DNA of 35,389 nt. Origin: Deltaproteobacteria bacterium (GTDB taxonomy: Bacteria > Desulfobacterota > Desulfobacteria > Desulfobacterales > UBA11574). A model generated the notes under the pieces. The model did not search any database, was not told the origin of the DNA, and saw nothing but the letters and a program-made list of their open reading frames with translations. The stretch spans positions 1 to 35,389 of the forward strand of contig JAFDEW010000004.1 of the NCBI GenBank assembly GCA_019310125.1, in the 5' to 3' direction. Made by a program: the position numbers and the translations under genes. This document shows positions 9,171-31,825 of the stretch, piece after piece. Positions within the stretch are counted from its first letter, which is position 1, and the number at the start of each line of letters is the position of its first letter.

Positions 9171-9310
9171 TTTACAACCTGTAAAAAAGACTGACACCCA
9201 TTCATTCCAAATTTTAGTAGCTATATTTTTTAAAAACAAAAAAAACCTGCATTATATCAATTGGTTCAGGATATATCTCGATGGGGCTTTATTTTGGTAC
9301 GGTTGTTGCT
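9171..9310 (+). promoter_or_regulatory. sigma54 promoter unit 1 (upstream motif, IHF-like site, -24/-12)
   Basis: TTTACA-N3-TGTAAAAAAGACTGACA (17-mer at 9180-9196). TATCAATTGGTT at about 9255. TGGTACGGTTGTTGCT at 9295-9310. Confidence 0.75.
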
Positions 9311-9536
9311 TTTAAAGAAAGCGGGTGGCTTACCCCCGGATTCTAAATGAAACTAATTGTTCATAACACTCTCGAAAAAAATAAGAATTACAAAAACACA
9401 TTTCGAGCGGTATAACTTGCTAAAAACCGATGATCAGCTTCATGGAATGGGTAAAATTTCGACGGTTATAACTGATTTGCCGGGATAAAGGATCTTATTG
9501 ACCACGAAAGTCGTGGTCTGAAAGGAGGCAACTTCT

Positions 9537-10439
9537 ATGACAGAAGGAATTAAAATTCTGCTTGTGGATGACGAAAAACATTTTTTGGAATCATTGACCA
9601 AGCGTTTAAAGAGGAGAAAGCAATATGTCAAGACCGCCGAAAGCGGTTCGGAGGCTTTGGCACAGATGGAAAACGAGTCATTTGATGTGATAATACTCGA
9701 TGTCAAAATGCCGGGCATGAATGGGATTGAAGTCCTGCAGAAGATAAAACGTGGGTTTCCCGATACCGAAGTCATCATGCTTACGGGCCATGCCACAATA
9801 GAATCCGGGCTTGAGGGCGTCCGTTTCGGAGCCTTTGATTACCTGATGAAGCCCACTGATATCGAAATTCTGATGGCCAAACTGGAAGCGGCATACGAGC
9901 ATAAAACCGAAAGGGAACTTAAGATTCACGATGCTGAATTTGAACGCGATCGGGGATTAATCATCGAAGAGATAACCCTGAAAGACGTAATACAGCGCGA
10001 TATCCCAAATGTTTATGCCGATACCTCACTTGCAGATGCGGTGCGAACTTTTAAGAAAAAACCGGGCGCTCCGGTTGCGGAACAGCTCTATGTAATTAAT
10101 GATTCAGAGGAACTTGTTGGAAAAGTGAGACGCAAGCATATCCTCAGGGCGGTGATCCCCATATTTCAAAAAGAAAAAATCATTACCGGGGATGATCTTA
10201 CCTGGAATGAGTTTCTCAAAAAAGGAACAGGCCCTGTGGCCACTATGCCGGTAGGCGAAATTATGAATAAGGAAGTGAAATCTTTGGGCGCTGATGCACA
10301 GATTTTAGAGACGGTGAAGTTTATGATCGATAATAATTTGGCCGTACTTCCGGTTGTGGAAGGGAAAAAATTACTGGGAACCGTTCGGATCTATGATCTC
10401 CTGTTAGTAATCAACGACATTATGGCCGAAGCGCTATAG
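9537..10439 (+). CDS. Response regulator receiver + tandem CBS domain protein
   Basis: LLVDDE, DVKMPG, LTGH, YLMKP. C-terminal CBS pair (LYVIN..LVG, LPVVEGKKLLG). AGGAGG RBS. Confidence 0.9.
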   Translation: MTEGIKILLVDDEKHFLESLTKRLKRRKQYVKTAESGSEALAQMENESFDVIILDVKMPGMNGIEVLQKIKRGFPDTEVIMLTGHATIESGLEGVRFGAFDYLMKPTDIEILMAKLEAAYEHKTERELKIHDAEFERDRGLIIEEITLKDVIQRDIPNVYADTSLADAVRTFKKKPGAPVAEQLYVINDSEELVGKVRRKHILRAVIPIFQKEKIITGDDLTWNEFLKKGTGPVATMPVGEIMNKEVKSLGADAQILETVKFMIDNNLAVLPVVEGKKLLGTVRIYDLLLVINDIMAEAL

Positions 10440-10475
10440 CCAAACGCTTGAGGCTACGCCTAAAGGAGGTAACAC

Positions 10476-11102
10476 ATGGCTGTCATAACCATTTTTGGAT
10501 TATATGCTTCAAAAAAAAGGGGGTTCGGCAAGGCCCTTGCCAAGAAGTTGAACTATGACTACGCGGACAGGGAAATAATTCGCGAGCTGTCCCGTCGCGC
10601 AAATATATCTGAAGAATATGTGGAATCTTATGAAGATGGTCGATTCACAGGACTGATGGAGATTCTTTCCAAGACCGTCAGTATGAATTTCATCAAAAGG
10701 CTTATCGGTGATAGAGCAGGGTATATAGATTCCAAGATTTACTTCAAACTGCTGGAAGAAATTGTCATTTCTCTTGCCAAAAGGGACAATATTGTTATCG
10801 TTGGACGAGGAAGCCATTGTATACTTCAGGGATATGAAAACGCATATTTTATAAAGATTAAATGTGAATGGGAAGACAGGGTCAAAACCGCCGGTAAATT
10901 ACTATCATCGCGAGTTTGCGATGTAGAAGAGTATATCCTTGAACAGGATAAAAAGGAAAAGAAATTCATGGAGTATTTTTACAACGTTGACTGGTTAGAC
11001 CCTTCACTGTTCAGCCTGGAGATAAACCTGAGCCACGTGAGTAGGGAGGAAGCCATACAACAGGTCATTGATCTGATTTCAGCCAAAAAAAATGTTGCAT
11101 AA
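10476..11102 (+). CDS. Cytidylate kinase-like family protein
   Basis: AVITI..ALAKKLNYDYADREII, VIVGRGS, YFYNVDW.DPSLF.L.IN. The P-loop region is degenerate. AGGAGG RBS. Confidence 0.8.
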   Translation: MAVITIFGLYASKKRGFGKALAKKLNYDYADREIIRELSRRANISEEYVESYEDGRFTGLMEILSKTVSMNFIKRLIGDRAGYIDSKIYFKLLEEIVISLAKRDNIVIVGRGSHCILQGYENAYFIKIKCEWEDRVKTAGKLLSSRVCDVEEYILEQDKKEKKFMEYFYNVDWLDPSLFSLEINLSHVSREEAIQQVIDLISAKKNVA

Positions 11103-11140
11103 CGGCTTTGTCAAATCGCGGTGTATTGTTTATCTTTTTC

Positions 11141-11212: not shown

Positions 11213-11332
11213 ATGAACGATTCGATTTTTTTAATAATTGCAATAAGGGATATGCTGTTGTAACATACAGGAAAAGATTGTCGGCGGTGCATGTTTTCAT
11301 TTTATATGTTGATTCATTTTAAGGAACAAAAT

Positions 11333-11602
11333 ATGAAAATTGAGATTAAGAAACCCACAGACAAGGATCTTGAAACTAAAGACATTTTATCCTGGCCCAT
11401 ATGGGAAAAAGAAATTTCTCGCTTCGACTGGCACTATGACAGTACCGAGGAATGCTATCTATTGGAAGGCAAAGTTATTGTTGAAACAAAAGATGGCAAG
11501 ACCGTGGAATTCGGGAAGGGAGATTTTGTTACATTCCCCAAAGGTCTGTCCTGTGTCTGGGATATTAAAGCGCCGGTAAAAAAGCATTACAACTTTAAAT
11601 AA
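11333..11602 (+). CDS. Cupin domain protein (Cupin_3/DUF861-like)
   Basis: WPIWEKE.S.FDWHY...EECYLLEG.V...FGKGDFVTFPKGLSCVWDI. Start moved to ATG 11333 after AAGGA. Confidence 0.88.
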   Translation: MKIEIKKPTDKDLETKDILSWPIWEKEISRFDWHYDSTEECYLLEGKVIVETKDGKTVEFGKGDFVTFPKGLSCVWDIKAPVKKHYNFK

Positions 11603-11737: not shown

Positions 11738-11876
11738 TTTACATACTGTAAAAAATCCTGACATTAATCTATTTTTGCAAACAAGTTTTATAATTCCCTT
11801 CTCCAACATAGTTACCTATATTTTCAATTAGTTATAATAAATTTTTTCGGCAACCTTTATTGGCATAGGTATTGCT
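11738..11876 (+). promoter_or_regulatory. sigma54 promoter unit 2
   Basis: TGTAAAAAATCCTGACA at 11747-11763. IHF-like TTTCAATTAGTTA at about 11822. TGGCATAGGTATTGCT at 11861-11876. Confidence 0.8.
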
Positions 11877-12037: not shown

Positions 12038-12097
12038 GAATGGAAAAGGTTACAAGGAAAAACGGACTAAATCATTTATCATCAAAAAAGACGACGG

Positions 12098-12478
12098 GTG
12101 GAAAAGAAAATCAAAATATTAGTAGCCGACCGGAATCAGCATGTCCGAGAATTTCTAAAGCGTGAATTGATGGCAGAGGGTTACAGGGTTCGGCTGGCAA
12201 AAAACGTCCAGGAAGTTCTTAAGAAGGTATATCATACCGAAACTCTGGATCTTTTAATCCTGGACCCGGACCTGCCCGGTACCGACAAATTGGCCTTATT
12301 AAAGAAGCTGCAGAATCGGATTCCGGCCCTGCCGGTGGTCGTTCACACGTATCTTGCAGATTATAACGACTACACCAATGAATTGAGTAAACTCGCTTTT
12401 GTGGAAAAGTGCGGCAGCAGTGTTGAAAACCTTAAAAAGATGGTCCATGAAATTTTGCGAAAACACAAAACAAGTTAA
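12098..12478 (+). CDS. Stand-alone atypical receiver-domain protein
   Basis: ILVADRN (DD pair altered), LILDPDLPG, VVHT, FVEK. Confidence 0.82.
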   Translation: MEKKIKILVADRNQHVREFLKRELMAEGYRVRLAKNVQEVLKKVYHTETLDLLILDPDLPGTDKLALLKKLQNRIPALPVVVHTYLADYNDYTNELSKLAFVEKCGSSVENLKKMVHEILRKHKTS

Positions 12479-12573: not shown

Positions 12574-14289
12574 ATGACGACGGGTAGCCACAAAAAGGAC
12601 CCATATTATACCTCATTGACCAGAAGAATGATTTTAACCATCATCAGTGTATCATTTGCCCCCATGATCCTGGTCAGCGGCTCAATCCTATATCGGTTCC
12701 ACGTCTCTTATCATGAAAAAGTAGCGGCCCATTTAGAAGAACTGGTGAAAAAACATAAACAGAATATTGACTCTTTTTTAAATGAGAAACTGGGCGAGAT
12801 TCGTTTTCTGGTAAAAAATTCCGAATTTGAAAATCTGTGTAAAGAATCTTACCTGGAACAACAACTGGCAACCCTGCAGCAGGAACTTGATCCTGTATTT
12901 GTAGATCTTGGGATGGTCAATTCCAAAGGGATTCAAATTGCATATGCCGGTCCCTTTAAATTGGGAAAAGCCCAGTACTCGGAATCTGAATGGTTTAAAC
13001 AGGCCATCCAAAGCCAATATTTTATCAGTGACGTTTTCCTGGGCCTGCGGGGTTTGCCTCACTTTATCGTTACGGTGAGAAAAAGCTTCCACGGAGAATA
13101 CTGGATATTTAGAGCAACCATCGACTTTATGGCCTTTAACAATCTGGTGGAAAACGTTCGTATCGGCAAGACCGGATTTGCCTTTATCGTGAATAGAGAA
13201 GGAAAATGCCAGACCAAGCCATGTCTTGACATTATACCCAGTAAAACCAACTACATGAATTTATTAAAAAACGGAAACAGGGATATCGGCAAAATTTATA
13301 TCTTTGAGGCGAAGGACGATATTGGAAAGAAAAATATCTACACGTCGGCTTTTCTCAAAAGCGGTAACTGGATGCTCATATGTCAGCAAAATAAATCAGA
13401 TACCTATTCGGATCTTTACCGCGCTAAAAAGATTGCCGCTTTAATTTTTCTTTTAGGCGGGGTGGGGATTATCACCATGGCGATTTTATTATCCCGAAGA
13501 ATGGTGATCCATATTGCACAAGCAGATCGTGAAAAGGATATGATGAACCTGCAGGTAATCGAAACCGGAAAACTGGCAACCGTAGGTGAACTGGCTGCCG
13601 GTATCGCCCACGAAATCAATAACCCGGTTGCCATTATGGTTGAAGAAGCCGGCTGGATGGAAGATTTGCTGGAAGATGTAGAGGTTACGGAAAATGAAAA
13701 TTTGGAAGAATTCCAAAGAGCGTTGAGGCAGATCAACACCCAGGGAAAACGGTGCAAGGAAATTACCCATAAGTTGCTCAGTTTTGCCAGAAAAACAGAC
13801 TCAAGGATTCAGGTTGTCCTGATGAACGATCTGATCAAAGATGCGATCGGGCTTGCTGAACAAAGTGCCAAGTATAGTAAAATTACCATCAATACAAATT
13901 TTGAAGAAAACATACCTTTCATTCAGGCCTCTCAGACGGAAATTCAGCAAGTTTTTTTAAATCTTATTAATAATGCGGTTGACGCCATGGACAAAAAAGG
14001 CGGCGGCACCATAGACATAACCAGCCGTTTGGAGGGTAACGCCATTGTGATCGATTTTGCGGATAATGGCCCGGGCATCCACCGGAATAATCTTGCCAGA
14101 ATATTCGATCCCTTTTTTACAACCAAACCCGTGGGCAAAGGGACCGGATTAGGGTTGTCTATCTGTTACGGCATTATCAAAAAAATGGATGGGGAGATCC
14201 ATGTGCAAAGTGTTGTCGACGAGGGAACCACATTCAGTATCCGCATCCCCATTCCAAAAGATTTATTAGAGGAATCGTCAATGACTTGA
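12574..14289 (+). CDS. Membrane sensor histidine kinase, Cache-type periplasmic domain (HK1)
   Basis: Two TM segments. H-box AHEINNP, N-box [25 protein letters not shown]. Confidence 0.95.
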   Translation: MTTGSHKKDPYYTSLTRRMILTIISVSFAPMILVSGSILYRFHVSYHEKVAAHLEELVKKHKQNIDSFLNEKLGEIRFLVKNSEFENLCKESYLEQQLATLQQELDPVFVDLGMVNSKGIQIAYAGPFKLGKAQYSESEWFKQAIQSQYFISDVFLGLRGLPHFIVTVRKSFHGEYWIFRATIDFMAFNNLVENVRIGKTGFAFIVNREGKCQTKPCLDIIPSKTNYMNLLKNGNRDIGKIYIFEAKDDIGKKNIYTSAFLKSGNWMLICQQNKSDTYSDLYRAKKIAALIFLLGGVGIITMAILLSRRMVIHIAQADREKDMMNLQVIETGKLATVGELAAGIAHEINNPVAIMVEEAGWMEDLLEDVEVTENENLEEFQRALRQINTQGKRCKEITHKLLSFARKTDSRIQVVLMNDLIKDAIGLAEQSAKYSKITINTNFEENIPFIQASQTEIQQVFLNLINNAVDAMDKKGGGTIDITSRLEGNAIVIDFADNGPGIHRNNLARIFDPFFTTKPVGKGTGLGLSICYGIIKKMDGEIHVQSVVDEGTTFSIRIPIPKDLLEESSMT

Positions 14290-14413: not shown

Positions 14414-14845
14414 ATGGCTATTGCAAAAGTACTTTTAGTAGATGATGAAGCTCCATTTGTGGAGACCATGACCAAGCGGTTAACCAAAAGAGCCCTCGAT
14501 ATTATACCGGCGTTTAGCGGAAATGAGGCCCTGAAACGGCTAAAAGAAGACGACAAAATCGAAGTGGTTATACTCGATGTCAAGATGCCGGGCATGGATG
14601 GAATTGAAGCCCTCCAGGAAATCAGGAAGAGATATCCTCTGGTCGAGGTGATCATGCTCACCGGCCATGCCACCGTGGAATCCGCTATTGAAGGGATGAA
14701 GTGGGGCGCCTTTGATTACCTGATGAAACCCTGTGATATCGATCATCTTATTTCCAAGGTATCGGAGGCCGCTGCCAAAAAGAGACAGCATGAAAATAAA
14801 ATCATAGAAGCACGCATGAAGGAGATTACCGGCAGGATGGTCTAG
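14414..14845 (+). CDS. Stand-alone response regulator receiver protein
   Basis: LLVDDE, DVKMPG, LTGH, YLMKP. Short charged C-terminal helix. AGGAG RBS. Confidence 0.93.
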   Translation: MAIAKVLLVDDEAPFVETMTKRLTKRALDIIPAFSGNEALKRLKEDDKIEVVILDVKMPGMDGIEALQEIRKRYPLVEVIMLTGHATVESAIEGMKWGAFDYLMKPCDIDHLISKVSEAAAKKRQHENKIIEARMKEITGRMV

Positions 14846-14943: not shown

Positions 14944-15345
14944 ATGTCGGAAAATGAGAAAAAAAAGGCCGATAAAATAAAGCTTCTGCTTGTGGATGAT
15001 GAAAAAGGTTTTGCGAACATCATTGCCAAACGGATGTCTAAACGCGGCATTGATGTCACCGAGGCCTACAGCGGGACTGAAGCGTTACAGGCCATAAGAA
15101 AGGCAGATTTTGACGTGGCCGTCCTGGATCTGAAAATGGAAGATATGGATGGAATTGAAATTCTAAAAATTTTCAAGAAAATGGACCCGGATCTTGCCGT
15201 GATTATGCTGACCGGTCATGGATCCGAAGCCGCGGCCAAAGACGGCATTAAATTCGGAGCTTTTGATTATCTTACCAAACCCTGTGATCTTGAAGAACTT
15301 CTGGAAAAAATCAGGGAGGCATATCAGCAACCCAAACAGATTTGA
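14944..15345 (+). CDS. Stand-alone response regulator receiver protein
   Basis: LLVDDE, DLKMED, LTGH, YLTKP. Confidence 0.93.
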   Translation: MSENEKKKADKIKLLLVDDEKGFANIIAKRMSKRGIDVTEAYSGTEALQAIRKADFDVAVLDLKMEDMDGIEILKIFKKMDPDLAVIMLTGHGSEAAAKDGIKFGAFDYLTKPCDLEELLEKIREAYQQPKQI

Positions 15346-15356
15346 AAGGAGAAAAA

Positions 15357-16937
15357 ATGTTTTTCAAAAGCAAACAGTTCCAACTCGGTTTAGCATTGGC
15401 ACTCGGGATTATTGTTTTTTTATTGCCCAGACCTGAAGGAACCAAATTTAAGATCACCGGTGATCAGGGGCGATTAGTGTTGCAGGACGTAGGCCAGCAC
15501 TTTACCTTAGTTCCCGCTGAAAAGGAAAAGGCCAAAGAATATATCGTGGAAGCCATACATCCCAAAAGCCCTGAATGTACGGCTCAGTTTTTAAAGGATA
15601 CGGCTGCGAAGCTAAACACAGAAGGGGTTGAGGTCGATTATATCAACGGTCTTTCGCCCAGAGGAAAACGGTTTCTGGCAGTGCTGGTGGTGCTTATTTT
15701 TCTCTTTGTGGCCGAACCCATCCCCCTGGAAATTACCGCCATTTGTATCGGCGTGTTTTTGGTGATCATGGGAATCACCGATGTCAAAGGGGCCTGGGCC
15801 CCGTATATGCATCCGGTGGTGGTTTTTATCATGTGCTGTTTAATCTTTGCCATCTCCCTGGATAAAGCCGGGATTACAAAACGGCTCGGGCATTTTATCG
15901 TCAAAAAAGCAGGAACCAGTGTGACCAAGTTCACTTTTATTATTGCCATCAGTTTAGGCATATCTTCCTCTTTTATGCATGATGCCGCGGCATGTGCCAT
16001 TGGCATTATAACCATGCTTCCGTTGATGAAGGCTGCCGGCATTGAACCGCACACAAAAACGGCCAAATTTATGATGCTGTCTCTCCCCTTTGGTTGTTCC
16101 TGCGGCGGCATGGGATCGCTGATCGGCGGGGGACGCTGTATGGTGGCGGCCGCTTTTCTCAAGGAATTTACGGGACTTGAGATTAGCTTTTTCGAATGGA
16201 TAAAGTATGCCATGCCGGCGGCTATTATTTGCGTACCTATAGCAGTTTCCATCGTTTATTTTGTGTTTCGTCCCAATCCCAAGTACAAACTGCCTGTATT
16301 TGATGAGGAAATCGGTCCCTGGACCGCCCTGGAAAAAAAGACGCTCATTATCATCGGGCTGACATTTGCTTTTTGGTTAACCAAGGGATTCCATGGGATT
16401 CACTATTCGGTTACCGGAATGTTAGGTGTTACCTTCCTGGTCCTTTTCGGCATTTTGAAATGGGAACATATTAATGATAATCTGGAATGGGGAACCGCCC
16501 TCTTTATTTTTGGCGGCGGTATTTCCCTGGGTCTGGCCATGGGCTACTCGGGAGCGGCCTCTTATTTTGCCTACCTGTTTTTCCCTCTGGTTCAAGGCGG
16601 GGGCTGGTTGTTGCTGTTTGCCGGCGTAGCCGTTTTCGGGGCTCTGGTTACCAATGCCATGGCCAACGTGGCAGCAGCAGCTCTGATCTTGCCTATTGTG
16701 ATTCCAATGGCCAGGTTGGAGGGCGTCGATCCCACGGTTATCGCGCTGTGTCTTGGAATGGCCACTTCATTTGCCATGCTTTTGGTGATCGGTTGTCCAC
16801 CCAATGCCATTGCATACAGCTATCGATATTTTAAGGCTGCGGATCTCACTAGAGTGGGACTTGTTGCCACACCGATTTTGTTGTTTGTTTTAGTGGTAGT
16901 GGCATCCACATGGTGGAAAATATTGGGGCTGGTATAA
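15357..16937 (+). CDS. DASS/SLC13 family anion transporter (A)
   Basis: Multi-TM protein with EPIPLEIT, ISFFEW, LFIFGGG.SLG, GCPPNAIAY. Start moved to ATG 15357 after AAGGAG. Confidence 0.88.
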   Translation: MFFKSKQFQLGLALALGIIVFLLPRPEGTKFKITGDQGRLVLQDVGQHFTLVPAEKEKAKEYIVEAIHPKSPECTAQFLKDTAAKLNTEGVEVDYINGLSPRGKRFLAVLVVLIFLFVAEPIPLEITAICIGVFLVIMGITDVKGAWAPYMHPVVVFIMCCLIFAISLDKAGITKRLGHFIVKKAGTSVTKFTFIIAISLGISSSFMHDAAACAIGIITMLPLMKAAGIEPHTKTAKFMMLSLPFGCSCGGMGSLIGGGRCMVAAAFLKEFTGLEISFFEWIKYAMPAAIICVPIAVSIVYFVFRPNPKYKLPVFDEEIGPWTALEKKTLIIIGLTFAFWLTKGFHGIHYSVTGMLGVTFLVLFGILKWEHINDNLEWGTALFIFGGGISLGLAMGYSGAASYFAYLFFPLVQGGGWLLLFAGVAVFGALVTNAMANVAAAALILPIVIPMARLEGVDPTVIALCLGMATSFAMLLVIGCPPNAIAYSYRYFKAADLTRVGLVATPILLFVLVVVASTWWKILGLV

Positions 16938-17037
16938 TCCGATGAAGGAGTTCCTAACGTTGATTTTTTTAGAAAACTAACATATAATATGTTAAGATTT
17001 TAATTTGCAACCCGAAATTTTTAACAAAAAAACACAT

Positions 17038-18240
17038 ATGAAAGATATACGCCTTCTTCTTGTTGATGACGAAGATAATTTTCGACAGACTCTCGCCAAA
17101 CGCCTGGCAAAAAAGGGGATTCCTCCCGAGCAGGCCGAAAATGGAGAGAAAGCACTTTCCATTCTTGAAAAAAAAGAGATGGATGTTGTGGTGCTGGACG
17201 TTAAAATGCCCGGTATGGACGGAATCGAGGTCCTTCGCCATATCAAAAAAAAGCATCCCGGGACGGAAGTTATCTTTCTAACCGGTCATGCCGCAACTCA
17301 GGATGGTGTTGATGGAATTAAAAGGGGCGCTTTTGATTATCTCAGCAAACCCATAGAATTCGAACATCTGTTGAGTAAGATCAAACAGGCCTATGATAAG
17401 GTCGTACGGGAAGAAGAAAAGCTCCGGGAAGCCGAATTCAGGAAGAAGATGAGACAGCAAATGGCAACCACTGAAAAATTGGCTTCCCTGGGAACTCTGG
17501 CCGCCGGTGTGGCCCATGAAATTAATAATCCATTGGCCATTATCAATGAATCGGCGGGCTGGCTGAAGCTGATTATAAACAGAGAAGAAATGGCTCAAAT
17601 GCCCCGCAAGCAGGACTTTGAAATGGCCCTGAATAAAATAGAAACGGGCGTGGACAGGGCCAAGAGAATTACCCATCAGCTTTTGGGATTTGCCAAAAAG
17701 GATGATTCCGTCCTTGTTGAAATTAATCTTGGGGATCTGGCCGATGAGGCCGTACAACTGGTACACAGGGAAGCAACCAACAAGGATATTGAAATTGTTC
17801 AGGAAACACAACCTGACATCGGAACGATCTGGAGTGATCCCTACCAGTTACGGCAGGTATTGATTAACCTTTTAAACAATGCCATTCATGCCACCGGATC
17901 CGGAGGCAGAATCACCATCATAATTGAAGCGTTGAACGGAGAAATAAACCTCACCGTTCAGGATAACGGGCAGGGCATACCCAAAGAGAACCTGGATAAA
18001 ATATTCGAGCCGTTTTTCAGTACGAAATCTCCGGGTAAAGGCACGGGTTTGGGGCTGTTTGTTACGCGCGGCATTGTTGAAAAGCTGTGCGGGACTATAA
18101 AGGTGGAAAGCCGCCTAGGTCACGGAACTCGCTTTTGCATCAGGCTGCCGAGATATTGTGAAATAAAAGAGGATCTGGACCAGGATGAACGTATCCCGTT
18201 TTTGGACAATATAGCAAAACACAAAGGTTCAACCCAATAA
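17038..18240 (+). CDS. Soluble hybrid kinase: receiver + HisKA + HATPase
   Basis: N-terminal REC (DDED, DVKMPG, LTGH, SKP), then AHEINNP, NLLNNA, DNGQG, GTGLGL. No TM segment. ATG at 17038. Confidence 0.93.
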   Translation: MKDIRLLLVDDEDNFRQTLAKRLAKKGIPPEQAENGEKALSILEKKEMDVVVLDVKMPGMDGIEVLRHIKKKHPGTEVIFLTGHAATQDGVDGIKRGAFDYLSKPIEFEHLLSKIKQAYDKVVREEEKLREAEFRKKMRQQMATTEKLASLGTLAAGVAHEINNPLAIINESAGWLKLIINREEMAQMPRKQDFEMALNKIETGVDRAKRITHQLLGFAKKDDSVLVEINLGDLADEAVQLVHREATNKDIEIVQETQPDIGTIWSDPYQLRQVLINLLNNAIHATGSGGRITIIIEALNGEINLTVQDNGQGIPKENLDKIFEPFFSTKSPGKGTGLGLFVTRGIVEKLCGTIKVESRLGHGTRFCIRLPRYCEIKEDLDQDERIPFLDNIAKHKGSTQ

Positions 18241-18263: not shown

Positions 18264-18710
18264 ATGATCAAGATACCAACCAAGGTGCTTTTAGTGGATG
18301 ATGAGAAAGATTTTATTGAAATGCTTTCCTTAAGGTTGACGGAGGTAGGGGAAAAAATTACCGTTGCTTTCAGCGGGCAGGAAGCGCTTGACACATTGGA
18401 AAAAGCCGACATTGATGTGGTCATTCTGGATATTAAGATGCCCGGTATGGATGGTATCGAAACCTTAAGAGAAATAAAGAAGCAATTCCCTCTGGTCGAA
18501 GTCATCATGCTTACCGGACACGGGAGTACCGAAACCGCTGTTGAAGGAATGAAATTAGGCGCTTTTGATTATCTCATGAAGCCGGCGGATTTTGATGATC
18601 TTACTTTGAAGTTGGAAGGGGCCAGAAAGAGAAAAGACGAACAGCAAGAACGGATCAGAAAAGCCGAAGCCAAACTTCTGGTAAGAAAAAGCGGTGGTAT
18701 TTTTTCTTGA
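18264..18710 (+). CDS. Stand-alone response regulator receiver protein
   Basis: LLVDDE, DIKMPG, LTGH, YLMKP. AGGAG RBS. Confidence 0.93.
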   Translation: MIKIPTKVLLVDDEKDFIEMLSLRLTEVGEKITVAFSGQEALDTLEKADIDVVILDIKMPGMDGIETLREIKKQFPLVEVIMLTGHGSTETAVEGMKLGAFDYLMKPADFDDLTLKLEGARKRKDEQQERIRKAEAKLLVRKSGGIFS

Positions 18711-18978: not shown

Positions 18979-19114
18979 TTTACACTGTGTAAATAATTCT
19001 GACATATATTTTTTTCCGGCAAACTTCCCGACACACCAATTTCCAAAATAATCCTATATTTTTAAAGAGTTATCCAATATTGCTTGTTGCTTATTTTTTG
19101 GCACATTCATTGCT
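18979..19114 (+). promoter_or_regulatory. sigma54 promoter unit 3
   Basis: TGTAAATAATTCTGACA at 18988-19004. TGGCACATTCATTGCT at 19099-19114. Confidence 0.82.
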
Positions 19115-24606: not shown

Positions 24607-24743
24607 TTTGCAATGTGTAAATAATCCTGACAAACCCGCCACGCAAATCTTATCTTAAAAATTTTTCTTAATTATATAAATACCATTATATTAGCATATT
24701 AGATGTATTTTCCTTTGTTGCTATTTTTGGCATGCCGATTGCT
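24607..24743 (+). promoter_or_regulatory. sigma54 promoter unit 4
   Basis: TGTAAATAATCCTGACA at 24616-24632. TGGCATGCCGATTGCT at 24728-24743. Confidence 0.82.
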
Positions 24744-24782: not shown

Positions 24783-26471
24783 ATGATGATGCCGGATCAT
24801 TTTTCAACACTAAGGAGAGCCATTCTTACCTGTATGGTCCTGGTTCCATTAATTCCATTCATCCTGGCTCTGGGCACCGGTTATTATTATTTCACGACGT
24901 CTCTTGAGGACAGTTCCATTGAAAGCATGAAAAGAATTGTCGAAGATCACCGGCATATGATCGAGTCTTTTCTCAAAGAGCGGAAAAATGATTTAGATTT
25001 TATTATTCATTCCTATACCTTCGAAAATCTCAGTCAATCTGAAAACCTTGAAACCGTCTTTAATAATTTACAGAAAAAATCCCCGGCGTTTTTTGATCTG
25101 GGAGTTTTCAACCCGTCCGGGGTGCATGTTGCTTATCACGGGCCTTACAGTTTAAAAGGCAAGATTTATAAAGATATGCAATGGTTCAAGGAAGTGATGA
25201 AACATGGATATTATATCAGCGATATTTTTTTAGGGTATCGGCAGATACCGCATTTTGTTATTGCGGTTACCCAGGAGGAGATGGGCAAAAAGTGGGTGCT
25301 TCGGACAACCATTGATACGGTTTCATTCAATAATATTGTAAAAAGTATCCGCATCGGTAAGACCGGAGAGGCCTACATTCTGAATGCAAACGGCTTACTT
25401 CAGACAGAACCGCGTTCCGGCGGAAAACTCATGGACAAAAATCCGCACAACATCAACTATCCGTCATCCGACACCCGCACCGAAATTTTTATAAATAACA
25501 ATGTTAAAGGTGAAAAATATCTATGCACGACCACCTGGCTGCAGAATAAAAAATGGCTGGTGGTGGTCAGACAGGAAAAAGCAGATGCATTCAAAGCACT
25601 TACTTCGGCCGCTTATTTGATTATTCTCATCATGGGGGTTGGCGGGTCGGCGATCACCGTGATTGCGTTTTACCTTACGAATCGTATTGTCGGGCGCATG
25701 GAAAAAATGGATGTTGAAAAGGACCGCTTGAACCAGCAGCTCATCGGAGCGAGTCGACTTGCAGAGCTGGGTGAAATGTCGGCGGGTTTTGCTCATGAGA
25801 TTAACAATCCCCTTCAGATCATCAAAACTGAGCAATCCCTGATCCAAATGACTTTAGAGGACATGAAGAAAGCAGGCCAGCTAAAGGAATCGGAGTCTCT
25901 GGCAGAACTTGAGGATTCCATGGATCAGATCAGACTTCAGATTTCCCGGTGTTCCGAGATTACCCGGGCAATTTTAAAATTGGGCCGGCAGGACGAGCCC
26001 AAACCTCAAGATATAACCCTTAAAGATTTCATTCCGGAAATCACCGGTATGGTGGCTCAAAAGGCCATTGTCCACGGAATTTCAATCGAGCAGGATATTG
26101 CCGAAAACACGGTTCGCATACATGGAGATCCCACCCAATTCCAGCAAGTTTTAGTGAATCTTTATAACAATGCAATAGATGCGATTCTCGAACGTCATGG
26201 AACTTCGGGCGGCAAACTGATTATCAAAGCCGGGCCAAAACAAAACAACCGGGTCGAAATTATGGTCATTGACAATGGCCAAGGAATAAGTCCCGAAAAT
26301 TTGAATAGAATTTTTTCACCGTTTTTTACAACCAAATCGGTTGGGAAAGGAACGGGCTTAGGTCTTTGGATATGTTACGGTATCATCGATAATATGCGCG
26401 GCAGTATGGAGGTCAGCAGTGACGTCGGTGTCGGAACCACCGTCACCATACTGCTACCGGCAGCAGTTTAA
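24783..26471 (+). CDS. Membrane sensor histidine kinase, Cache-type (HK2)
   Basis: Paralog of HK1. AHEINNP, NLYNNA, DNGQG, FFTTK, GTGLGL. GGAGG RBS. Confidence 0.95.
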   Translation: MMMPDHFSTLRRAILTCMVLVPLIPFILALGTGYYYFTTSLEDSSIESMKRIVEDHRHMIESFLKERKNDLDFIIHSYTFENLSQSENLETVFNNLQKKSPAFFDLGVFNPSGVHVAYHGPYSLKGKIYKDMQWFKEVMKHGYYISDIFLGYRQIPHFVIAVTQEEMGKKWVLRTTIDTVSFNNIVKSIRIGKTGEAYILNANGLLQTEPRSGGKLMDKNPHNINYPSSDTRTEIFINNNVKGEKYLCTTTWLQNKKWLVVVRQEKADAFKALTSAAYLIILIMGVGGSAITVIAFYLTNRIVGRMEKMDVEKDRLNQQLIGASRLAELGEMSAGFAHEINNPLQIIKTEQSLIQMTLEDMKKAGQLKESESLAELEDSMDQIRLQISRCSEITRAILKLGRQDEPKPQDITLKDFIPEITGMVAQKAIVHGISIEQDIAENTVRIHGDPTQFQQVLVNLYNNAIDAILERHGTSGGKLIIKAGPKQNNRVEIMVIDNGQGISPENLNRIFSPFFTTKSVGKGTGLGLWICYGIIDNMRGSMEVSSDVGVGTTVTILLPAAV

Positions 26472-26556
26472 ACTAAATGCAGGACTACTGACCTATTGTA
26501 GATTCAGATTCAACATATTTTAATGAAGAATTCACACCTTGAAGGCATATAAAAGA

Positions 26557-26676
26557 TGAACGTCGAACATCGAACATCGAACGTTGAACATCCAATAATG
26601 TATTCTACCATTTATAATAAAGACAAAGCGAAGCGCCTTCCACATTCGACGTTCGACGTTGAACGTTCGATGTTCA
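26557..26676. repeat. Inverted element built of 7-bp tandem units (CGAACAT/CGAACGT)
   Basis: GAACGTCGAACATCGAACATCGAACGTTGAACAT ... TTCGACGTTCGACGTTGAACGTTCGATGTTCA. Confidence 0.8.
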
Positions 26677-26784
26677 AATTGTTACATCTAAAATTACGAC
26701 TAACCCCCCATATTACGTTGAAATTATGTATACAGTCAGGAGTTCTGAAATAAGTCTAAACAATTCGTTAACAGGGAGTCAATT

Positions 26785-27231
26785 ATGAAAAAAATGAGGA
26801 TGATAATAGTGGATGATGAGGAAAGGTTTTTGTCAACCATGAAAAAATTGCTTACCAAAAAAGGGTATGATGTGGTGACCGCCTCAAGCGGGGCAGAGGC
26901 ACTGGAAATAATCGGTGCTCAAAATATCCATGTGGTGATCCTTGATGTTAAAATGCCGGGCATGGATGGGAATGAAACGTTAAGGGAAATTAAAAAGCGA
27001 TTTCCATTGACCGAGGTGATCATGCTCACCGGACACGCGACCATGGAATCCGCGGTGGAAGGCTTAAAATCAGGGGCCATGGATTATTTAATGAAGCCGG
27101 CGGATCTGGATGAAATCATCAAGAAAGCAGAGGATGCTTTCGCAAAAAGACAAAACCTGGAAGAAAAAATTCGTGTGGCCCGGATGCGGAAGATAGTGAA
27201 ATCGCCGAGTGAAATTATTCAGGATTCATAG
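26785..27231 (+). CDS. Stand-alone response regulator receiver protein
   Basis: IIVDDE, DVKMPG, LTGH, YLMKP. Confidence 0.93.
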   Translation: MKKMRMIIVDDEERFLSTMKKLLTKKGYDVVTASSGAEALEIIGAQNIHVVILDVKMPGMDGNETLREIKKRFPLTEVIMLTGHATMESAVEGLKSGAMDYLMKPADLDEIIKKAEDAFAKRQNLEEKIRVARMRKIVKSPSEIIQDS

Positions 27232-27279: not shown

Positions 27280-27414
27280 TTTACACTGTGTAAATAATCC
27301 TGACATATACATCCGCACATTCCACCGTTAAAATTTCTCTCAGTCAATTAATTATCAGTTATTTTAAATGGTTATCCAAGTTTGTTTATTGCTTTATCTG
27401 GCATAAAGATTGCT
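27280..27414 (+). promoter_or_regulatory. sigma54 promoter unit 5
   Basis: TGTAAATAATCCTGACA at 27289-27305. TGGCATAAAGATTGCT at 27399-27414. Confidence 0.82.
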
Positions 27415-27511: not shown

Positions 27512-29146
27512 GTGAAAATTCAGACAACAAGTGCCGATGGCCGGTCCGCATTCTGGAAGAATAAGCCGGGTTATAAGCCGATTTTGTTTATTGCCGCAGC
27601 CGTGGTTTTTATTGTTATGGTTGTTATGCCGTCACCCCAAAGTATGATTGACATGGTGACAAAAGTCAGCCCTCCCGGGTATAAGCTGTCAAAGGGGTGT
27701 TCAACTATTGTTGAAACGGTTAACCAAAAGTTACGGCCCAAGGCCTTTAAAGCATCCCGTCAGGACAAGACAATAAAAGGGGAAAAACCACTGATGGATG
27801 AGAAAGGGGTGGCCCGGAATGCTAAAATTATGATTGCCATATTATTTTTAGCCGCTTTTTTATGGGGCACTGAAGCCCTGCCTCTGGGCGCCACGGACAT
27901 TATGGTGGGGGTCTTGATTTATCTTTTTGCTATCCTGCCGATTAACGAAATTTCCAGGGCGTATATGAAAGATGCCGTGTTTTTTATTTTCGGCATCCTG
28001 GCGGTAGCGGTTGGCGTTTCCAAAACCGGTCTTGACAAACGGATCGGCCTGATTCTTCTGAGCCGGATTAAGAGCGCTAAATCTTTTGCCTTTATCTTTT
28101 TTCCTCTACTGGCTATGTGTGCCGGATTTTTATCCGAACATGCCCTGGTGGCCCTCCTGATTCCCGCACTTATGGGGGTATATAAGGTTACCTGCAAAAT
28201 GCACGGCGTTAAAAAAGACCGGGCTCTGGCCATTTTTCTTTTTCTTGGGGTCTGTTTTGCGGCCAATCAAGGAGGCCCGGGGTCTCCGGCAGCGGGGGGA
28301 CGCAACGCCATTATGGTCGGCTATTTCATGGAATATGGGATGCCGATTTCTTTTTTGCAGTGGATGAAATATGGCCTGCCGTTTGTTCCGTTCATGGCGG
28401 TGGTCATCGGAGCTTACATGTATATTCTCTTTAAGCCCAAATTCAAGGTGCCGGATGTAAATCCCAGCGAAGTCGTAAAGGCTGAAGTGGCGAATATGCC
28501 TAAATTCGGAGGTCAAGAAGCCATAATGGCTATCATCTTGATCCTTTTAATCACTGGATGGATTACGCTGAGTAAAATTGCCGGTCTTGGCGGCCCCACT
28601 CTTTACGCGGTAATGGCAATGTTTGTATTCCGTATTGTCTCCTGGGATGACATCCAGGCGGGCGTGGCCTTTGATGTGGTCGGGTTGTATGCCGCCGCCT
28701 GTGCCATGGGAGTGGGTCTGAAATTTACCGGAGGCGCCCTCTGGCTGGCATCTACCTTTGTCAATTTCCTTCCGGATTTTATGACCAAAGGTGACGGCCT
28801 GATTATAGGGGTCAGTCTGCTGACCGGAACCATGACCAATTTTATGAGTGACGGTGCTACGGTTGCCGCTTTGGGACCAATCGTTCTCCCCATGGCCACA
28901 CTTGCCAATGTTAATGTTTGGAAAGTGGGGCTGGCCACCGCTTTTTCTTCCTCATTTGCGAATTTTCTGGTGGTCGGCACGCCCAACAATGCAATTGCCT
29001 TCGGCATGAGCCGGGATTTTGAAACCGGTGAAAGGTTGCTGGATGTAATGGATTTTGTTAAATACGGACTTCCGGTAACTATTCTGGCCTGGCTCGTCCT
29101 CTGGGGTTGGGCAGTCTTCGGATACTGGAAATTTTTATCCTGGTAG
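27512..29146 (+). CDS. DASS/SLC13 family anion transporter (B)
   Basis: LWGTEALPLG, GLDKRI, ISFLQW, VGTPNNAIAF, DFVKYG. Multi-TM. AAGGAG RBS with GTG start. Confidence 0.88.
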   Translation: MKIQTTSADGRSAFWKNKPGYKPILFIAAAVVFIVMVVMPSPQSMIDMVTKVSPPGYKLSKGCSTIVETVNQKLRPKAFKASRQDKTIKGEKPLMDEKGVARNAKIMIAILFLAAFLWGTEALPLGATDIMVGVLIYLFAILPINEISRAYMKDAVFFIFGILAVAVGVSKTGLDKRIGLILLSRIKSAKSFAFIFFPLLAMCAGFLSEHALVALLIPALMGVYKVTCKMHGVKKDRALAIFLFLGVCFAANQGGPGSPAAGGRNAIMVGYFMEYGMPISFLQWMKYGLPFVPFMAVVIGAYMYILFKPKFKVPDVNPSEVVKAEVANMPKFGGQEAIMAIILILLITGWITLSKIAGLGGPTLYAVMAMFVFRIVSWDDIQAGVAFDVVGLYAAACAMGVGLKFTGGALWLASTFVNFLPDFMTKGDGLIIGVSLLTGTMTNFMSDGATVAALGPIVLPMATLANVNVWKVGLATAFSSSFANFLVVGTPNNAIAFGMSRDFETGERLLDVMDFVKYGLPVTILAWLVLWGWAVFGYWKFLSW

Positions 29147-29157
29147 ACTGAAAAAAA

Positions 29158-29527
29158 ATGAACGCCCAACATCGAACGTCCAACATCGAATGATGAATGG
29201 AAAAAGATGAAGAAACAGAAATGATGCATTCGTAAAAAGTCGTCACTCCGGTGAAAACCGGAGTCCAGATGGTCTGTAACTGCTTGAAAAGACTGGATTG
29301 CGGCTTGGCCGTCATCCCGGACCCCGATCCGGGACGGAATGACGGAAAACGGTATTTTGGGACTTTTTACGAGGCCATCAGAAATAGCTGTTGAATGTTT
29401 GGTATTGGATATTTATTTTTTATTCGATTTTAAAATAATTTGAGGAGCGGAGCGACATCATTATTCGACGTTCGACGTTCAATGTTCGATGTTGGACGTT
29501 CATCTTTTAATATGTTGGACGTTCATC
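29158..29527. repeat. Second 7-bp-unit inverted element, interrupted by a MITE-like insert
   Basis: Left arm ATGAACGCCCAACATCGAACGTCCAACATCGAAT. Right arm ATTCGACGTTCGACGTTCAATGTTCGATGTTGGACGTTCAT. Confidence 0.75.
29222..29380. mobile_element. MITE-like non-autonomous element containing REP-like palindromes
   Basis: Ends TGATGCATTCGTAAAAAGTC and GACTTTTTACGAGGCCATCA. GAAA flanks both sides. Confidence 0.7.
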
Positions 29528-29544
29528 CTTTAAACGGAATTTTA

Positions 29545-31205
29545 ATGGCATTTTATCAAAGAAAATTCATATACAAAAATCTTAAAAGAAAGATCACGAC
29601 GATCATCCTGTGTGTTGCCATTTTCCCTTTGATCTTTCTTGGAGAGACAATATATTAACATATGAAGAAAAGATTGAAGATCAGATAAAATACCGGACAA
29701 GATCCTTGTCTGATGCGGTGGAAGTTTTCTTAAGGGAACGAACCGCCATCCTTGCCACCATTGTGGACACCCGTTCTTTTGATGACTTAAAACAACAGGA
29801 GAATCTTTCCCGAATGTTTAAAGTGATCAGCCGGCGTACGGACGGCCTGATTGACCTGGGCGTTATCGACAGCGCCGGTCAACACCTGGCATACGCCGGG
29901 CCATATGATTTAAAAGGATTAAATTATTTTCAACAGCCCTGGTTTAATGAAGTTCTCAGCAAGGGCAAATATATCAGTGATGTTTACATGGGATACCGGC
30001 AATTGCCGCATTTTGTTATTGCTGTGCGCGGATACAGCAATGGCCGGGGCTGGATTTTGAGGGCAACCGTGGATTCGGACATTTTTAACAAACTTGTCAG
30101 GACCGCCCAGACAGGAATATCAGGTGATGCTTATATCATCAATAAAAAGGGGATTTATCAGACAGCTCCTCGTTTTTCCGGTAAGATATTAGGCAAATCA
30201 AATATTTCCTTAACGCTTTTTGGTCAAGGTACTACGGTTGCCGAAAAAATTAAGGCTAACGGCAAAACAAAACATGTTGCCGGCACCTGGTTGAAAAATA
30301 ATGAGTGGCTCTTGGTGATCACCCAGGACGTCGGAGATGAGAAAGGCGGGTTATTGACAACCAGAAATACGGAAATCATGATTATTGTCTTTGGCTGTCT
30401 GGCAATAATTATGACCACATTTTTTGCAATGCGTATCATCTTTAACCACTTGGAAGAAGTTGACAAGGGGATTAGCGAACTTAATGATCAACTGATTCAG
30501 TCTGATAAAATGGCTGCCCTGGGAAAAATGGCCACCGGAATTGCCCATGAGATTAACAATCCCCTTGCGATAATCGGTGAAAAAGCAGGATGGATGCGGG
30601 ATTTGCTGGACGAAGAGAAATTTCAGGAGAGTGAAAATTTTAAAGAGTATGAACAATCCGTGGATAAAATTGAGGAACATGTGGAAAGGGCTCGCAAAAT
30701 AACCCATAATATGCTCGGATTTGCCAGAAGGATGGAACATCGTTTAGATGATGTTGATATTAATAATGTGTTAAATCAGACCATAGAACTTTTGCAAAGT
30801 CATGCACAGACAAGCAACATCAAAATAAGCAAAGATTTCCAGTCTGAACTGCCGATTATCGCAAGTGATCAATCTCAGCTTCAGCAGGTATTTTTGAACC
30901 TGATAAACAATGCTATTGATGCTGTGGAAAAGGATGGATTGATTGAAGTCAAAACGCGGAAAAAGGATTCTCAGATTGTAGTCGCTATAAAAGATAACGG
31001 TCCGGGTATGGATGAAGAACATCTGAAAAAGGTCTTTGATCCCTTTTTCACAACAAAAGAGACCGGCAAAGGGACTGGTCTGGGTTTGTCGGTGAGCTAT
31101 AATATTATTAAAAAATTAGGCGGTACCATAAAAGCGGAAAGCAAACTATCAGAAGGGGCTGTTTTCAGCATAAAGATTCCGATTAAAATTCCGGATAAAA
31201 AATGA
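29545..31205 (+). pseudogene. Membrane sensor histidine kinase, Cache-type (HK3), frameshifted just after TM1
   Basis: MAFYQ...PLIFLGETIY* in one frame. YEEKIEDQ...AHEINNP...GTGLGL continues in another frame. Alignment to HK1/HK2 implies about 13 nt missing near 29656. Confidence 0.8.
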
Positions 31206-31355
31206 CGGTCTCGTAAAAAGTCCAACTTCTGCGTTGTGCTGCATTTCGCAATCATTCAACGTACGAAAAGTACGCCTCATGATTACTAAATTTGCACGCC
31301 TTGAATTTGAACTTTTTACGAAACCGTCTAAATCGGACTTTTTACGAGTTCATCA
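31203..31355. mobile_element. MITE-like element of the same end family as 29222-29380
   Basis: TGACGGTCTCGTAAAAAGTCC ... GGACTTTTTACGAGTTCATCA. An internal second right end lies at 31311-31328. CGTAC-GAAAA-GTACG hairpin. Confidence 0.7.
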
Positions 31356-31375
31356 AAAGTAATAAGGAGATTCAA

Positions 31376-31825
31376 ATGGATATGTTCAGAATACTGGTCG
31401 TTGATGATGAAGTTGATTTTTTAGAAACAATTGTAAATCGACTGAAAAAAAGGAAACTGTTTACAACCGGTGTTACCAGCGGAGAACAAGCCCTCGCTCT
31501 TATAAAAGAACAATTATTTGATGTAATTATTCTCGACATAAAAATGCCCGGGGGTATGGACGGTATAGAAACCTTGCGGGAGATCAAGAAGATTCAGCCT
31601 CTGGTCGAAGTTATTCTTCTTACGGGACACGCTTCGCTGGAAACAAGTATTGAGGGGATGAAGCTGGGAGCTTTTGATTATTGCTTAAAACCCATTAAAC
31701 TCGAAGAGCTATTGCAAAAAATGGCGGCGGGATTTGAAAGGAAGTCCGGGCATGATAAAAAAATACGTGACGCCAAAATACAGGAACTGATCCGCTATCC
31801 CAGCAAGGTGTTTGATCAAGATTAA
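31376..31825 (+). CDS. Stand-alone response regulator receiver protein
   Basis: ILVVDDE, DIKMPG, LTGH, CLKP. ATG 31376 follows AAGGAG; the upstream extension is MITE sequence. Confidence 0.92.
   Translation: MDMFRILVVDDEVDFLETIVNRLKKRKLFTTGVTSGEQALALIKEQLFDVIILDIKMPGGMDGIETLREIKKIQPLVEVILLTGHASLETSIEGMKLGAFDYCLKPIKLEELLQKMAAGFERKSGHDKKIRDAKIQELIRYPSKVFDQD

Follow-up and report, generated by a model that had tools for sequence, protein, structure and literature searches.

How an array of signaling proteins that lacks any DNA-binding output could regulate anything is the question raised by positions 9171-31825 of contig JAFDEW010000004.1, from a Deltaproteobacteria bacterium of the Desulfobacterales (GenBank assembly GCA_019310125.1, 3.79 Mb in 535 contigs). 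The window analyzed here is this entire contig of 35,389 nucleotides (nt), 35.4 kb, which we number C13, and within the island every plausible gene, lettered A to S in Table 1, lies on the + strand. An earlier note on this DNA had listed four histidine kinases, seven stand-alone receivers, a REC-CBS protein, two DASS carriers, a cytidylate-kinase-like (CMK-like) protein and a phosphoenolpyruvate (PEP)-synthase-like protein, all co-oriented and none with an HTH or AAA+ output. Our Pfam scan at E<=0.01, made over 21 + strand open reading frames (ORFs) of the island with ORFs of fewer than 60 amino acids outside it, confirmed this inventory and gave a single TauE/TSUP protein and no HTH or AAA+ family among the 21 ORFs; the cupin_3 gene C had been overlooked. 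The answer that we favor, at a probability of roughly 0.55, is that the island belongs to a Desulfobacterales type of cluster combining DASS (putative sulfate) carriers, two-component systems and CBS proteins, and that it would form one sigma-54 regulon in which an NtrC-type activator encoded off the island supplies the DNA-binding output and the receivers act on proteins.

Sigma-54 type promoters, their shared upstream site and a candidate activator

The genes A, D, K, O and Q are each preceded by a spacer that holds a sigma-54 type promoter, five in all, at 40-227 nt from the downstream start codons. The pattern TGGYAY-N5-TTGCT matches 5 times against 0.05 expected, always on the + strand and in these spacers, a statistic that is post hoc because the pattern was loosened after the list of matches with 2 mismatches had been viewed; position and strand lend support that does not depend on it. 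Each promoter is accompanied by an upstream activator site, whose TGTAAA lies 110-115 nt ahead of the -24 TGG at all five promoters and whose core is invariant across the five aligned promoter regions. Because the five units share this site at the same spacing of 110-115 nt, the island has the look of a single regulon, and the promoter positions divide it into five or more transcription units of one orientation (A-C, D-J, K-N, O-P and Q onward). Scans for sigma-70 promoters (47 vs 39.7) and for terminators (28 vs 21.9) did not rise above shuffled sequences. A second perfect sigma-54 consensus, TGGCAC-N5-TTGCA, was observed on the - strand at 2889-2904, upstream of a glycosyltransferase gene (1194-2621); it lies outside the island and is not accompanied by the shared upstream site.

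In the whole genome of 3.79 Mb, TGTAAA-N5-CTGACA has 11 matches. At 8 of them the strict sigma-54 motif follows at a distance of +110 to +115, and another one, on contig C396, has a TTGCG promoter variant. The same pairing was found in 26 related loci, where 8 of 9 upstream sites have a promoter at +110 to +115; judged by coordinates, the sites in genomes G253 and G286 lie about 0.2 kb upstream of each genome's four-helix-bundle (4HB) kinase gene. Over the 582 kb of these loci, 31 matches to the sigma-54 motif fall on the cluster strand and 9 on the opposite one. The genome also encodes RpoN, recognized by a Sigma54_DBD domain on contig C534.

A candidate for the protein that binds the shared site is encoded on contig C396, where the gene order is dCache kinase, three REC proteins, a CBS protein of 184 amino acids, a DASS carrier, a 4HB kinase, a REC-AAA+-HTH_8 activator and Usp, with SulP-STAS and a CMK-like-REC fusion gene divergent from the activator module. 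The CBS-DASS-4HB kinase-activator module stands directly upstream of the D/E core in three other genomes (G263, G286 and G135), and the C396 activator is 68-73% identical to these core-adjacent activators, compared with 40-46% for the next-best activators of this genome. Further, an activator lies upstream of E in G099 and G125, and the orthologous activator is found on the contig of N at a distance of 44-65 kb in 4 of 4 same-family genomes searched, and next to the cluster in 5 of 20 phylum loci, in 2 of which the 4HB kinase and the activator come immediately before L-M. We infer from this conserved neighborhood, in which the orthologous module of other families adjoins the cluster, that the C396 activator, with its own 4HB kinase, would be the missing DNA-binding output. 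The earlier suggestion of a relay to a distant sigma-54 activator thus fits both the five promoters with one site and the position of the orthologous activator.

The shared site extends to genes on other contigs. On contig C50 (3448-4193), the site and a sigma-54 promoter head two divergent operons, one with Usp and an ADP-forming acyl-CoA-synthetase-like gene and the other with a CMK-like gene and a true PPDK (916 amino acids, with PEP-utilizers_C). On contig C91 (3442), they head genes for cNMP-binding, CBS-pair, TauE (318 amino acids), Usp and AAA_33/APH kinase-like proteins, and on C396 the site heads Usp. PF13189 genes, the CMK-like family, are tied to the shared-site regulon at five places.

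The arrangement resembles that of NtrC-family systems (NtrBC, ZraSR and AtoSC), with NtrC-like receivers, -24/-12 promoters about 110 nt from an inverted-repeat upstream site, and a C396 activator of the same REC-AAA+-HTH_8 build. Unlike them, the island has its activator elsewhere, consists mostly of stand-alone receivers and brings several kinases and many receivers into one regulon.

Kinases, receivers and the enzyme-like protein N

The three Cache kinases E, O and R are paralogues, as the earlier note had supposed, with 36-38% identity over their full length. The island kinases have the H-box AHEINNP in common, and AtoS and ZraS are their best NCBIfam matches, below the cut-off. R differs from its same-genus orthologue by a deletion of about 14 nt near 29650, which puts the first membrane helix, encoded from the ATG at 29545, in a frame other than the main one, which runs from 29610; in place of the GETIYYRFAKTYEEK of the orthologue, translation of the window gives GETIY-stop in one frame and DNILTYEEK in a second. 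This frameshift may be an assembly error or may mark a real pseudogene.

Facing the four kinases are nine receiver domains. Eight of them (in A, F, G, I, J, K, P and S) are mutually 47-54% identical and NtrC-like, with the motif GAFDYLMKP, and the full set of active-site residues (acidic pair, phospho-Asp, Thr and Lys) is retained in 8 of the 9 aligned domains. F, G, J, K, P and S are receiver-only proteins with all active-site residues, and most of the eight similar receivers end in a short helical tail; S probably starts further downstream than annotated, since orthologues align only from about residue 16-28. The ninth, D, has Ala at the first acidic site and has lost the FDY..KP motif. It is no remnant but a conserved atypical receiver, whose orthologues (44-52% identical) adjoin kinase E in other genomes. 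Since no Hpt domain was found among the Pfam matches of the 21 ORFs (E<=0.01; ORFs shorter than 60 amino acids unscanned), the term phosphorelay used in the earlier note is unproven in its strict sense. There is also no hybrid kinase with a C-terminal receiver, the only fused kinase, I, having its REC domain N-terminal to HisKA. In the proposed mechanism, the three periplasmic dCache kinases and the one receiver-controlled kinase would phosphorylate a pool of eight NtrC-like receiver domains.

With nine receiver domains for four kinases and no DNA-binding domain, protein targets are to be expected, and two fusions and one predicted complex point to such targets. A locus of genome G178 (L069:4610-6709) encodes a 700-residue REC-DASS fusion, with the receiver at residues 29-138 and the DASS carrier at 249-698, and C396:14659-15885 encodes a 408-residue protein in which a PF13189 domain is fused to a C-terminal receiver. 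The latter fusion suggests that the PF13189 family is a signaling module and not a nucleotide kinase; in B, the PF13189 protein of the island, the canonical P-loop is absent on inspection of the sequence by eye. The third case is the docking of K on N, described below. The REC-DASS fusion and the predicted K-N docking give indirect support to receivers that act post-translationally, as in one option of the earlier note.

Among the carriers, H matches Na_sulph_symp at 1.1e-49 and exceeds the cut-off of TIGR00785 (218.1, cut-off 198.6), and Q matches at 1.8e-38 with a TIGR00785 score of 189.6, just under that cut-off. L scores 125.4 bits against PF01925 (cut-off 32.6) over residues 85-367, and has additional hydrophobic segments at both termini and a charged loop of about 50 residues. 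The TauE pair reported in the earlier note is reduced to L, because M, which has no Pfam, NCBIfam or PDB-sequence match, is a separate membrane protein. Its model (predicted local distance difference test, pLDDT, 87.4) has a helix at either end and a small alpha/beta-plus-helical domain; Foldseek gave nothing for it at E<=0.001, and in the ESM Atlas it retrieved only "hypothetical" or "PEP-utilizing" clusters of Thermodesulfobacteriota. An apparent L-M gene fusion, suggested by open frames of 641-679 amino acids over M in some genomes, was discarded, as its upstream part is an out-of-frame read of L, and so was the unk226 gene on C396 as an M homologue, with only 19% identity.

N consists of a 120-residue N-terminal extension, an ATP-grasp domain (PPDK_N, 3.9e-93), a swivel-His domain (PEP-utilizers, 2.6e-19) and a C-terminal domain of 290 residues. 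In an alignment of 85 homologues, conservation of the RSS..ED motif and of H525, the catalytic His of the swivel domain, is 90% or higher. With PpsA, PPDK and rifampicin phosphotransferase N has in common the ATP-grasp PPDK_N and the mobile His domain, but it differs from PpsA and PPDK in its N-terminal extension and in that its own C-terminal domain replaces PEP-utilizers_C (PF02896), which gave no match, so that the PEP/pyruvate-binding TIM-barrel is missing. N scores 369 against the NCBIfam PpsA model (cut-off 598), over model positions 3-488 of 798 only, and PpsA chains in the PDB cover only residues 120-607.

The C-terminal domain defines a large family, with several paralogues per genome. 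It has 4617 clusters in the 90% library and 1207 representatives at E<=0.001, which almost without exception belong to proteins about 860 residues long. Its model is of good quality (pLDDT 90.4) and has no clear structural relative: there is no PDB sequence match, Foldseek against the PDB gave nothing at E<=0.001, with weak top rows that are mostly cytoplasmic parts of histidine kinases at a probability of at most 0.25, the best Z in the wide VIA-align search was only 5.5, and the ESM Atlas returned only "hypothetical" or "PEP-utilizing" clusters of Thermodesulfobacteriota. The conserved residues C616, H620, H627, E628, R749, H753, R783, R787 and R836, that is a Cys, His, a Glu and many Arg, lead us to infer that this domain may bind an anionic ligand. 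Paralogues of N, 31-41% identical, were seen near L-M-N in genome G003 (contig C107, locus L032), which also carries an M paralogue (35% identical), and at loci L120, L124, L133 and L137, and the dikinase-like family thus appears to expand locally.

Complex prediction with full-length N and residues 1-125 of K gave a score of 0.61 (runs 0.58-0.64), compared with 0.00 for the best of 3 controls. The mark used for this score was reached by 58 of 80 solved complexes and by 2 of 110 mismatched pairs, counts that hold only roughly here as the K-N prediction used alignments of our own. Contacts agree to at least 87% between runs, with a partner pLDDT of at least 80. In the model, receiver K docks on the ATP-grasp part of N with the rim of its active site, formed by alpha1, the beta4-alpha4 loop and beta5-alpha5, and is predicted to contact this domain at residues 194-209, 258-282 and 376-383, with a further contact at 483-489, directly ahead of the swivel domain. 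The island receivers are like CheY-like single-domain regulators, being receiver-only with an intact phosphorylation site, and K like them is predicted to bind a co-transcribed protein; it differs in that the protein it would bind is a dikinase-like enzyme, at the ATP-grasp domain.

From this model we draw a tentative proposal, possible but rather improbable in our estimate, that receivers of the island target a swivelling-histidine dikinase, which would be a new class of receiver target: K would dock on the ATP-grasp domain of N through its kinase-facing surface, phosphorylated K would switch N on or off or the phospho-histidine of N would feed the receiver, and N would work with L and M as a module that handles sulfur oxyanions. 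If the phospho-histidine of N did feed the receiver, this would be an ATP-driven entry to two-component signaling without a histidine kinase. To our knowledge no receiver-dikinase pair is known, and a literature search for a link between receivers and PEP synthase returned nothing relevant. Judged by gene presence, roughly one in four of the Thermodesulfobacteriota genomes sampled has the L-M-N module. Our best guess for L-M-N is a carrier of a sulfur oxyanion (sulfate or a related one) combined with a receiver-controlled phosphotransfer enzyme; TSUP proteins are the sole candidate sulfate carriers in some sulfate reducers, according to the accessible text of Marietou et al.

Conserved core, published clusters and competing explanations

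Related gene sets, whose existence the earlier note had considered possible, were found by the neighborhood comparison, with strong synteny at family, order and phylum level. N orthologues are full-length and 70-97% identical in many genomes of the family, and 33 of 52 family genomes match at E<=1e-50. In the family-level comparison, which covered six genomes, 18 of the 19 island proteins are colinear in the same-genus genome G022, where the cupin C alone is missing, and three genomes of another genus (G046, G038 and G049) have the order D-E-G-K-L-M-N. Because K directly follows G in these three genomes, H-I-J and F read as an insertion between G and K, and the receiver remnant before K, which the earlier note had rightly recognized, would be the scar of the H-I-J insertion.

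At greater distance, among the genomes sampled, 123 of 301 in the order and 109 of 401 in the phylum carry M, mostly in a single copy, and L and M are adjacent in 19 of 20 order loci and in all 20 phylum loci. In the order loci, N follows L-M in the same orientation in 14 of 20 and is inverted beside L-M in 2. In the phylum loci, 13 of 20 have an N-like gene (at least 41% identical) no more than 18 kb away, and about 13 of 20 have a receiver immediately ahead of L. DASS genes at least 48% identical to H or Q were found in only 6 of 20 order loci. As L-M(-N) recurs in most loci and H/Q-like DASS genes in a minority, the evolutionary core, found throughout the phylum, consists of the Cache kinase, the receivers, the TSUP carrier L, M and N. 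Later additions are the modules with DASS carriers, namely H-I-J, P-Q and (O)/R-S.

Clusters of this type have been published, so the earlier statement that no mechanistic description is known is outdated. In its accessible text, PMC11887813 (Sci Adv 2025) describes a 30.5-kb cluster of Desulfosarcina variabilis 3be13 (Dvar_38230 to Dvar_38430) in which DASS sulfate transporters, formed in abundance, are encoded along with CBS-domain proteins and many two-component systems whose kinases have N-terminal Cache sensors, reports related clusters in 26 sulfate reducers and a separate SulP cluster, and proposes an external sulfate sensor together with an internal, CBS-based level that reads energy or adenosine phosphosulfate (APS). 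Matched by description, the island has the same traits, with at least two DASS carriers, three dCache_1 kinases plus the REC-kinase and a CBS protein, and in both cases SulP is encoded apart from the DASS/two-component cluster (here on C396). Similarly, PMC5840216, as far as its text was accessible, cites Tarpgaard 2017 for clustered DASS genes of Desulfobacterium autotrophicum that are induced below 100 uM sulfate and for a DASS+SulP pair expressed at high sulfate, which by analogy parallel the window island and C396, respectively. The accessible text of Marietou 2018 gives no two-component context for sulfate carriers.

Sigma-54 control of TSUP operons in Desulfovibrio vulgaris is reported in PMC4641369, in its accessible part, including the binding of the TSUP-permease operon DVU0132-DVU0133 by the two-component activators DVU0110 and DVUA0057. 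Likened by description, this operon agrees with L-M in being a two-gene TSUP operon of a sulfate reducer under sigma-54 and two-component activators, and differs from the island in that the same part of the source mentions no dikinase-like gene or receiver pool. Kazakov 2015 makes no mention of sulfate transport, universal stress, cytidylate or dikinase, nor does the D. multivorans genome paper refer to DASS or dikinase.

What is new, then, is the regulatory detail and not the cluster type. The main text of PMC11887813, as accessible, does not mention TauE, TSUP, dikinase, phosphoenolpyruvate, RpoN, NtrC or enhancer, and its single mention of sigma-54 concerns catabolic modules; the sigma-54 promoters with their shared site, the off-island activator, the core of TSUP carrier, M and dikinase-like protein and the receivers that lack a DNA-binding domain were not found there, and to these the predicted receiver-dikinase contact is added. 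Dissimilatory sulfate reduction, by which much carbon is mineralized in marine sediments, begins with sulfate uptake, its least understood step. As the published model for the cluster type is speculative, the sites, the candidate activator and the regulon list (DASS, TSUP, Usp, CBS, CMK-like and PPDK) give handles by which the regulation of sulfate uptake and its match to the energy state become directly testable in cultured relatives with the cluster, for which Desulfosarcina variabilis, Desulfobacula toluolica and Desulfobacterium autotrophicum are named in the literature. Following the literature on related clusters, the role of the island would be the uptake of sulfate or a related sulfur oxyanion matched to external supply and cellular energy state.

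Several points weigh against the sigma-54 regulon for sulfate uptake that we favor, beginning with the fact that all evidence on this genome is computational. When 2 mismatches are allowed, the total count of the sigma-54 motif is not above chance (19 vs 16.9), and the strict motif occurs in just 4 of 20 distant phylum loci; what carries the promoter case is the shared upstream site, together with position and strand. About 29 PF00158 genes are present in the genome, where the C396 activator is a candidate for binding the shared site; kinase R may be broken; and near paralogues of a true partner also pass the complex test, so that the partner of N, if there is one, may be any of the eight similar receivers. 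The response regulators in the accessible text of PMC11887813 are of "WalR type", suggesting DNA binders, and none is found in the island. Sulfate is only a putative substrate of H, Q and L, assigned by analogy, and H, Q and the DASS carrier of C396 are mutually only 26-27% identical. Both H and Q also match CitMHS in Pfam.

This last match bears on the rival with the lowest probability, a carbon-substrate island, close to the dicarboxylate reading of the earlier note, in which the DASS carriers import C4/C6 carboxylates sensed by DctB/CitA-like Cache kinases and gluconeogenesis is served by N together with the co-regulated PPDK. Carboxylates are common ligands of dCache kinases, and the true PPDK and the ADP-forming acyl-CoA-synthetase-like gene on C50 do stand behind the shared upstream site. 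However, N lacks the PEP/pyruvate-binding domain, SulP-STAS is encoded on the partner contig C396, TauE/TSUP carriers recur in the regulon, and in descriptions of related clusters the DASS proteins are abundant sulfate transporters of sulfate reducers (PMC11887813 and PMC5840216, accessible parts). Carboxylates are less likely substrates than sulfate or a different sulfur oxyanion. A general energy-starvation or stress regulon is the strongest of the rivals and still unlikely: its activator would answer to the energy state, with Usp, CBS, cNMP-binding, CMK-like and dikinase-like proteins tuning the nucleotide and energy balance and the carriers only a part of it. The genes behind the shared site on other contigs, namely Usp (three times), CBS-pair, cNMP-binding, CMK-like (three times), AAA_33/APH kinase and PPDK, speak for it, as does the adenosine ligand that CBS domains typically bind (PMC11887813, accessible text), but three periplasmic Cache sensors argue for external ligands, and DASS, SulP and TSUP carriers dominate the conserved neighborhood.

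Improbable as well, and ranking between these two, is the absence of any integrated network, where independent one-to-one cassettes of kinase, receiver and carrier were brought together by recombination. The modular content varies between genomes, H-I-J was seemingly inserted between G and K and left a receiver scar, and P-Q is bracketed by a dispersed repeat, which speaks for such an origin; against it stand the one identical upstream site that heads all five units, the close paralogy of the eight receiver domains, the excess of receiver domains over kinases and a core order conserved across the phylum. Overall, the interpretation in the earlier note is partly supported, with the sigma-54 regulon and its off-island activator as the reading that we prefer.

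Coordinates, repeats and surroundings

The repeat on either side of P-Q (Table 1) is made of GAACGTCGAACATCGAA-like units, with inverted arms of up to 51 nt at 90% complementarity, and also occurs on C396 at about 5400-5790, in the spacer between DASS and 4HB kinase genes. It looks like a repetitive extragenic palindromic (REP) or miniature inverted-repeat transposable element (MITE)-like element, and the 65-residue ORF at 26556-26753 inside it is probably not a gene. Contigs from two RNA libraries of one study (X3, depth 3.3; X6, depth 22.3) run from 26572 straight to 29432 through 19 letters of other sequence, bypassing P-Q; with a flank of only 25 nt that lies within the repeat, the join is at most a weak hint of related strains without this cassette.

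Table 1. Positions of promoters, upstream sites, genes and repeats in the window
Feature	Position	Strand	Description	Basis
pA upstream site	9171-9196	+	upstream activator site, TTTACA-N3-TGTAAA-N5-CTGACA	motif, alignment
pA	9295-9310	+	sigma-54 type -24/-12, TGGTAC-N5-TTGCT	motif scan
A	9537-10439	+	REC + CBS-pair protein (REC + 2 CBS)	Pfam Response_reg 1.5e-30; CBS 3.8e-18
B	10476-11102	+	cytidylate-kinase-like (PF13189)	Pfam
C	11291-11602	+	EutQ-like cupin_3	Pfam
pD upstream site	11738-11763	+	upstream activator site	motif, alignment
pD	11861-11876	+	sigma-54 type promoter	motif scan
D	12098-12478	+	atypical receiver, probably pseudo-receiver, kept beside kinase E	Pfam, alignment, synteny
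E	12574-14289	+	dCache histidine kinase 1, core kinase (dCache_1+HisKA+HATPase_c)	Pfam
F	14414-14845	+	single-domain receiver	Pfam, alignment
G	14944-15345	+	single-domain receiver (core)	Pfam, alignment, synteny
H	15342-16937	+	DASS carrier 1, within the apparent H-I-J insertion between G and K	Pfam, NCBIfam, synteny
I	17005-18240	+	REC+HisKA+HATPase_c, receiver-controlled kinase	Pfam
J	18264-18710	+	single-domain receiver	Pfam, alignment
pK upstream site	18979-19004	+	upstream activator site	motif, alignment
pK	19099-19114	+	sigma-54 promoter, perfect TGGCAC-N5-TTGCT	motif scan
Remnant	19193-19315	+	receiver remnant, 73% identical to G residues 27-67	sequence comparison
K	19333-19755	+	single-domain receiver, predicted unit with L-M-N, predicted docking on N	Pfam, alignment, complex model
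L	19784-21082	+	TauE/TSUP-family carrier, 432 amino acids	Pfam
M	21079-21765	+	conserved membrane protein, 228 amino acids, no known family; start overlaps end of L by 4 nt	
N	21965-24559	+	PEP-synthase-like protein, 864 amino acids, four parts	Pfam, NCBIfam
pO upstream site	24607-24632	+	upstream activator site, TTTGCA variant	motif, alignment
pO	24728-24743	+	sigma-54 type promoter	motif scan
O	24783-26471	+	dCache histidine kinase 2 (dCache_1+HisKA+HATPase_c)	Pfam
Repeat, left	26537-26675		hairpin-forming dispersed repeat, left of P-Q cassette	repeat analysis
P	26785-27231	+	single-domain receiver	Pfam, alignment
pQ upstream site	27280-27305	+	upstream activator site	motif, alignment
pQ	27399-27414	+	sigma-54 type promoter	motif scan
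Q	27512-29146	+	DASS carrier 2	Pfam, NCBIfam
Repeat, right	29139-29533		second copy or copies of the dispersed repeat, right of P-Q; 46-nt inverted arms at 29153-29198 and 29463-29508	
R	29545-31205 (main frame 29610-31205)	+	dCache histidine kinase 3 (dCache_1+HisKA+HATPase_c), frameshifted	Pfam, orthologue comparison
S	31292-31825	+	single-domain receiver	Pfam, alignment

Contigs from four metatranscriptome libraries of two studies span most of the island at 95-99% likeness, with depth in 27, 23, 20 and 24 of 30 bins. Close relatives are therefore present in these RNA libraries; such libraries may contain DNA, and neither transcription of this genome nor its starts, strand or level are implied. 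The genes on both sides of the island are unrelated to it, with NlpC/P60, GT2, AAA-TPR and amidohydrolase genes on the - strand upstream, and a Na/Ca exchanger, a radical SAM protein and a transketolase downstream. The nearest homologues of the contig proteins come from metagenome-assembled genomes of Desulfobacteraceae, Desulfobacterales or Thermodesulfobacteriota.

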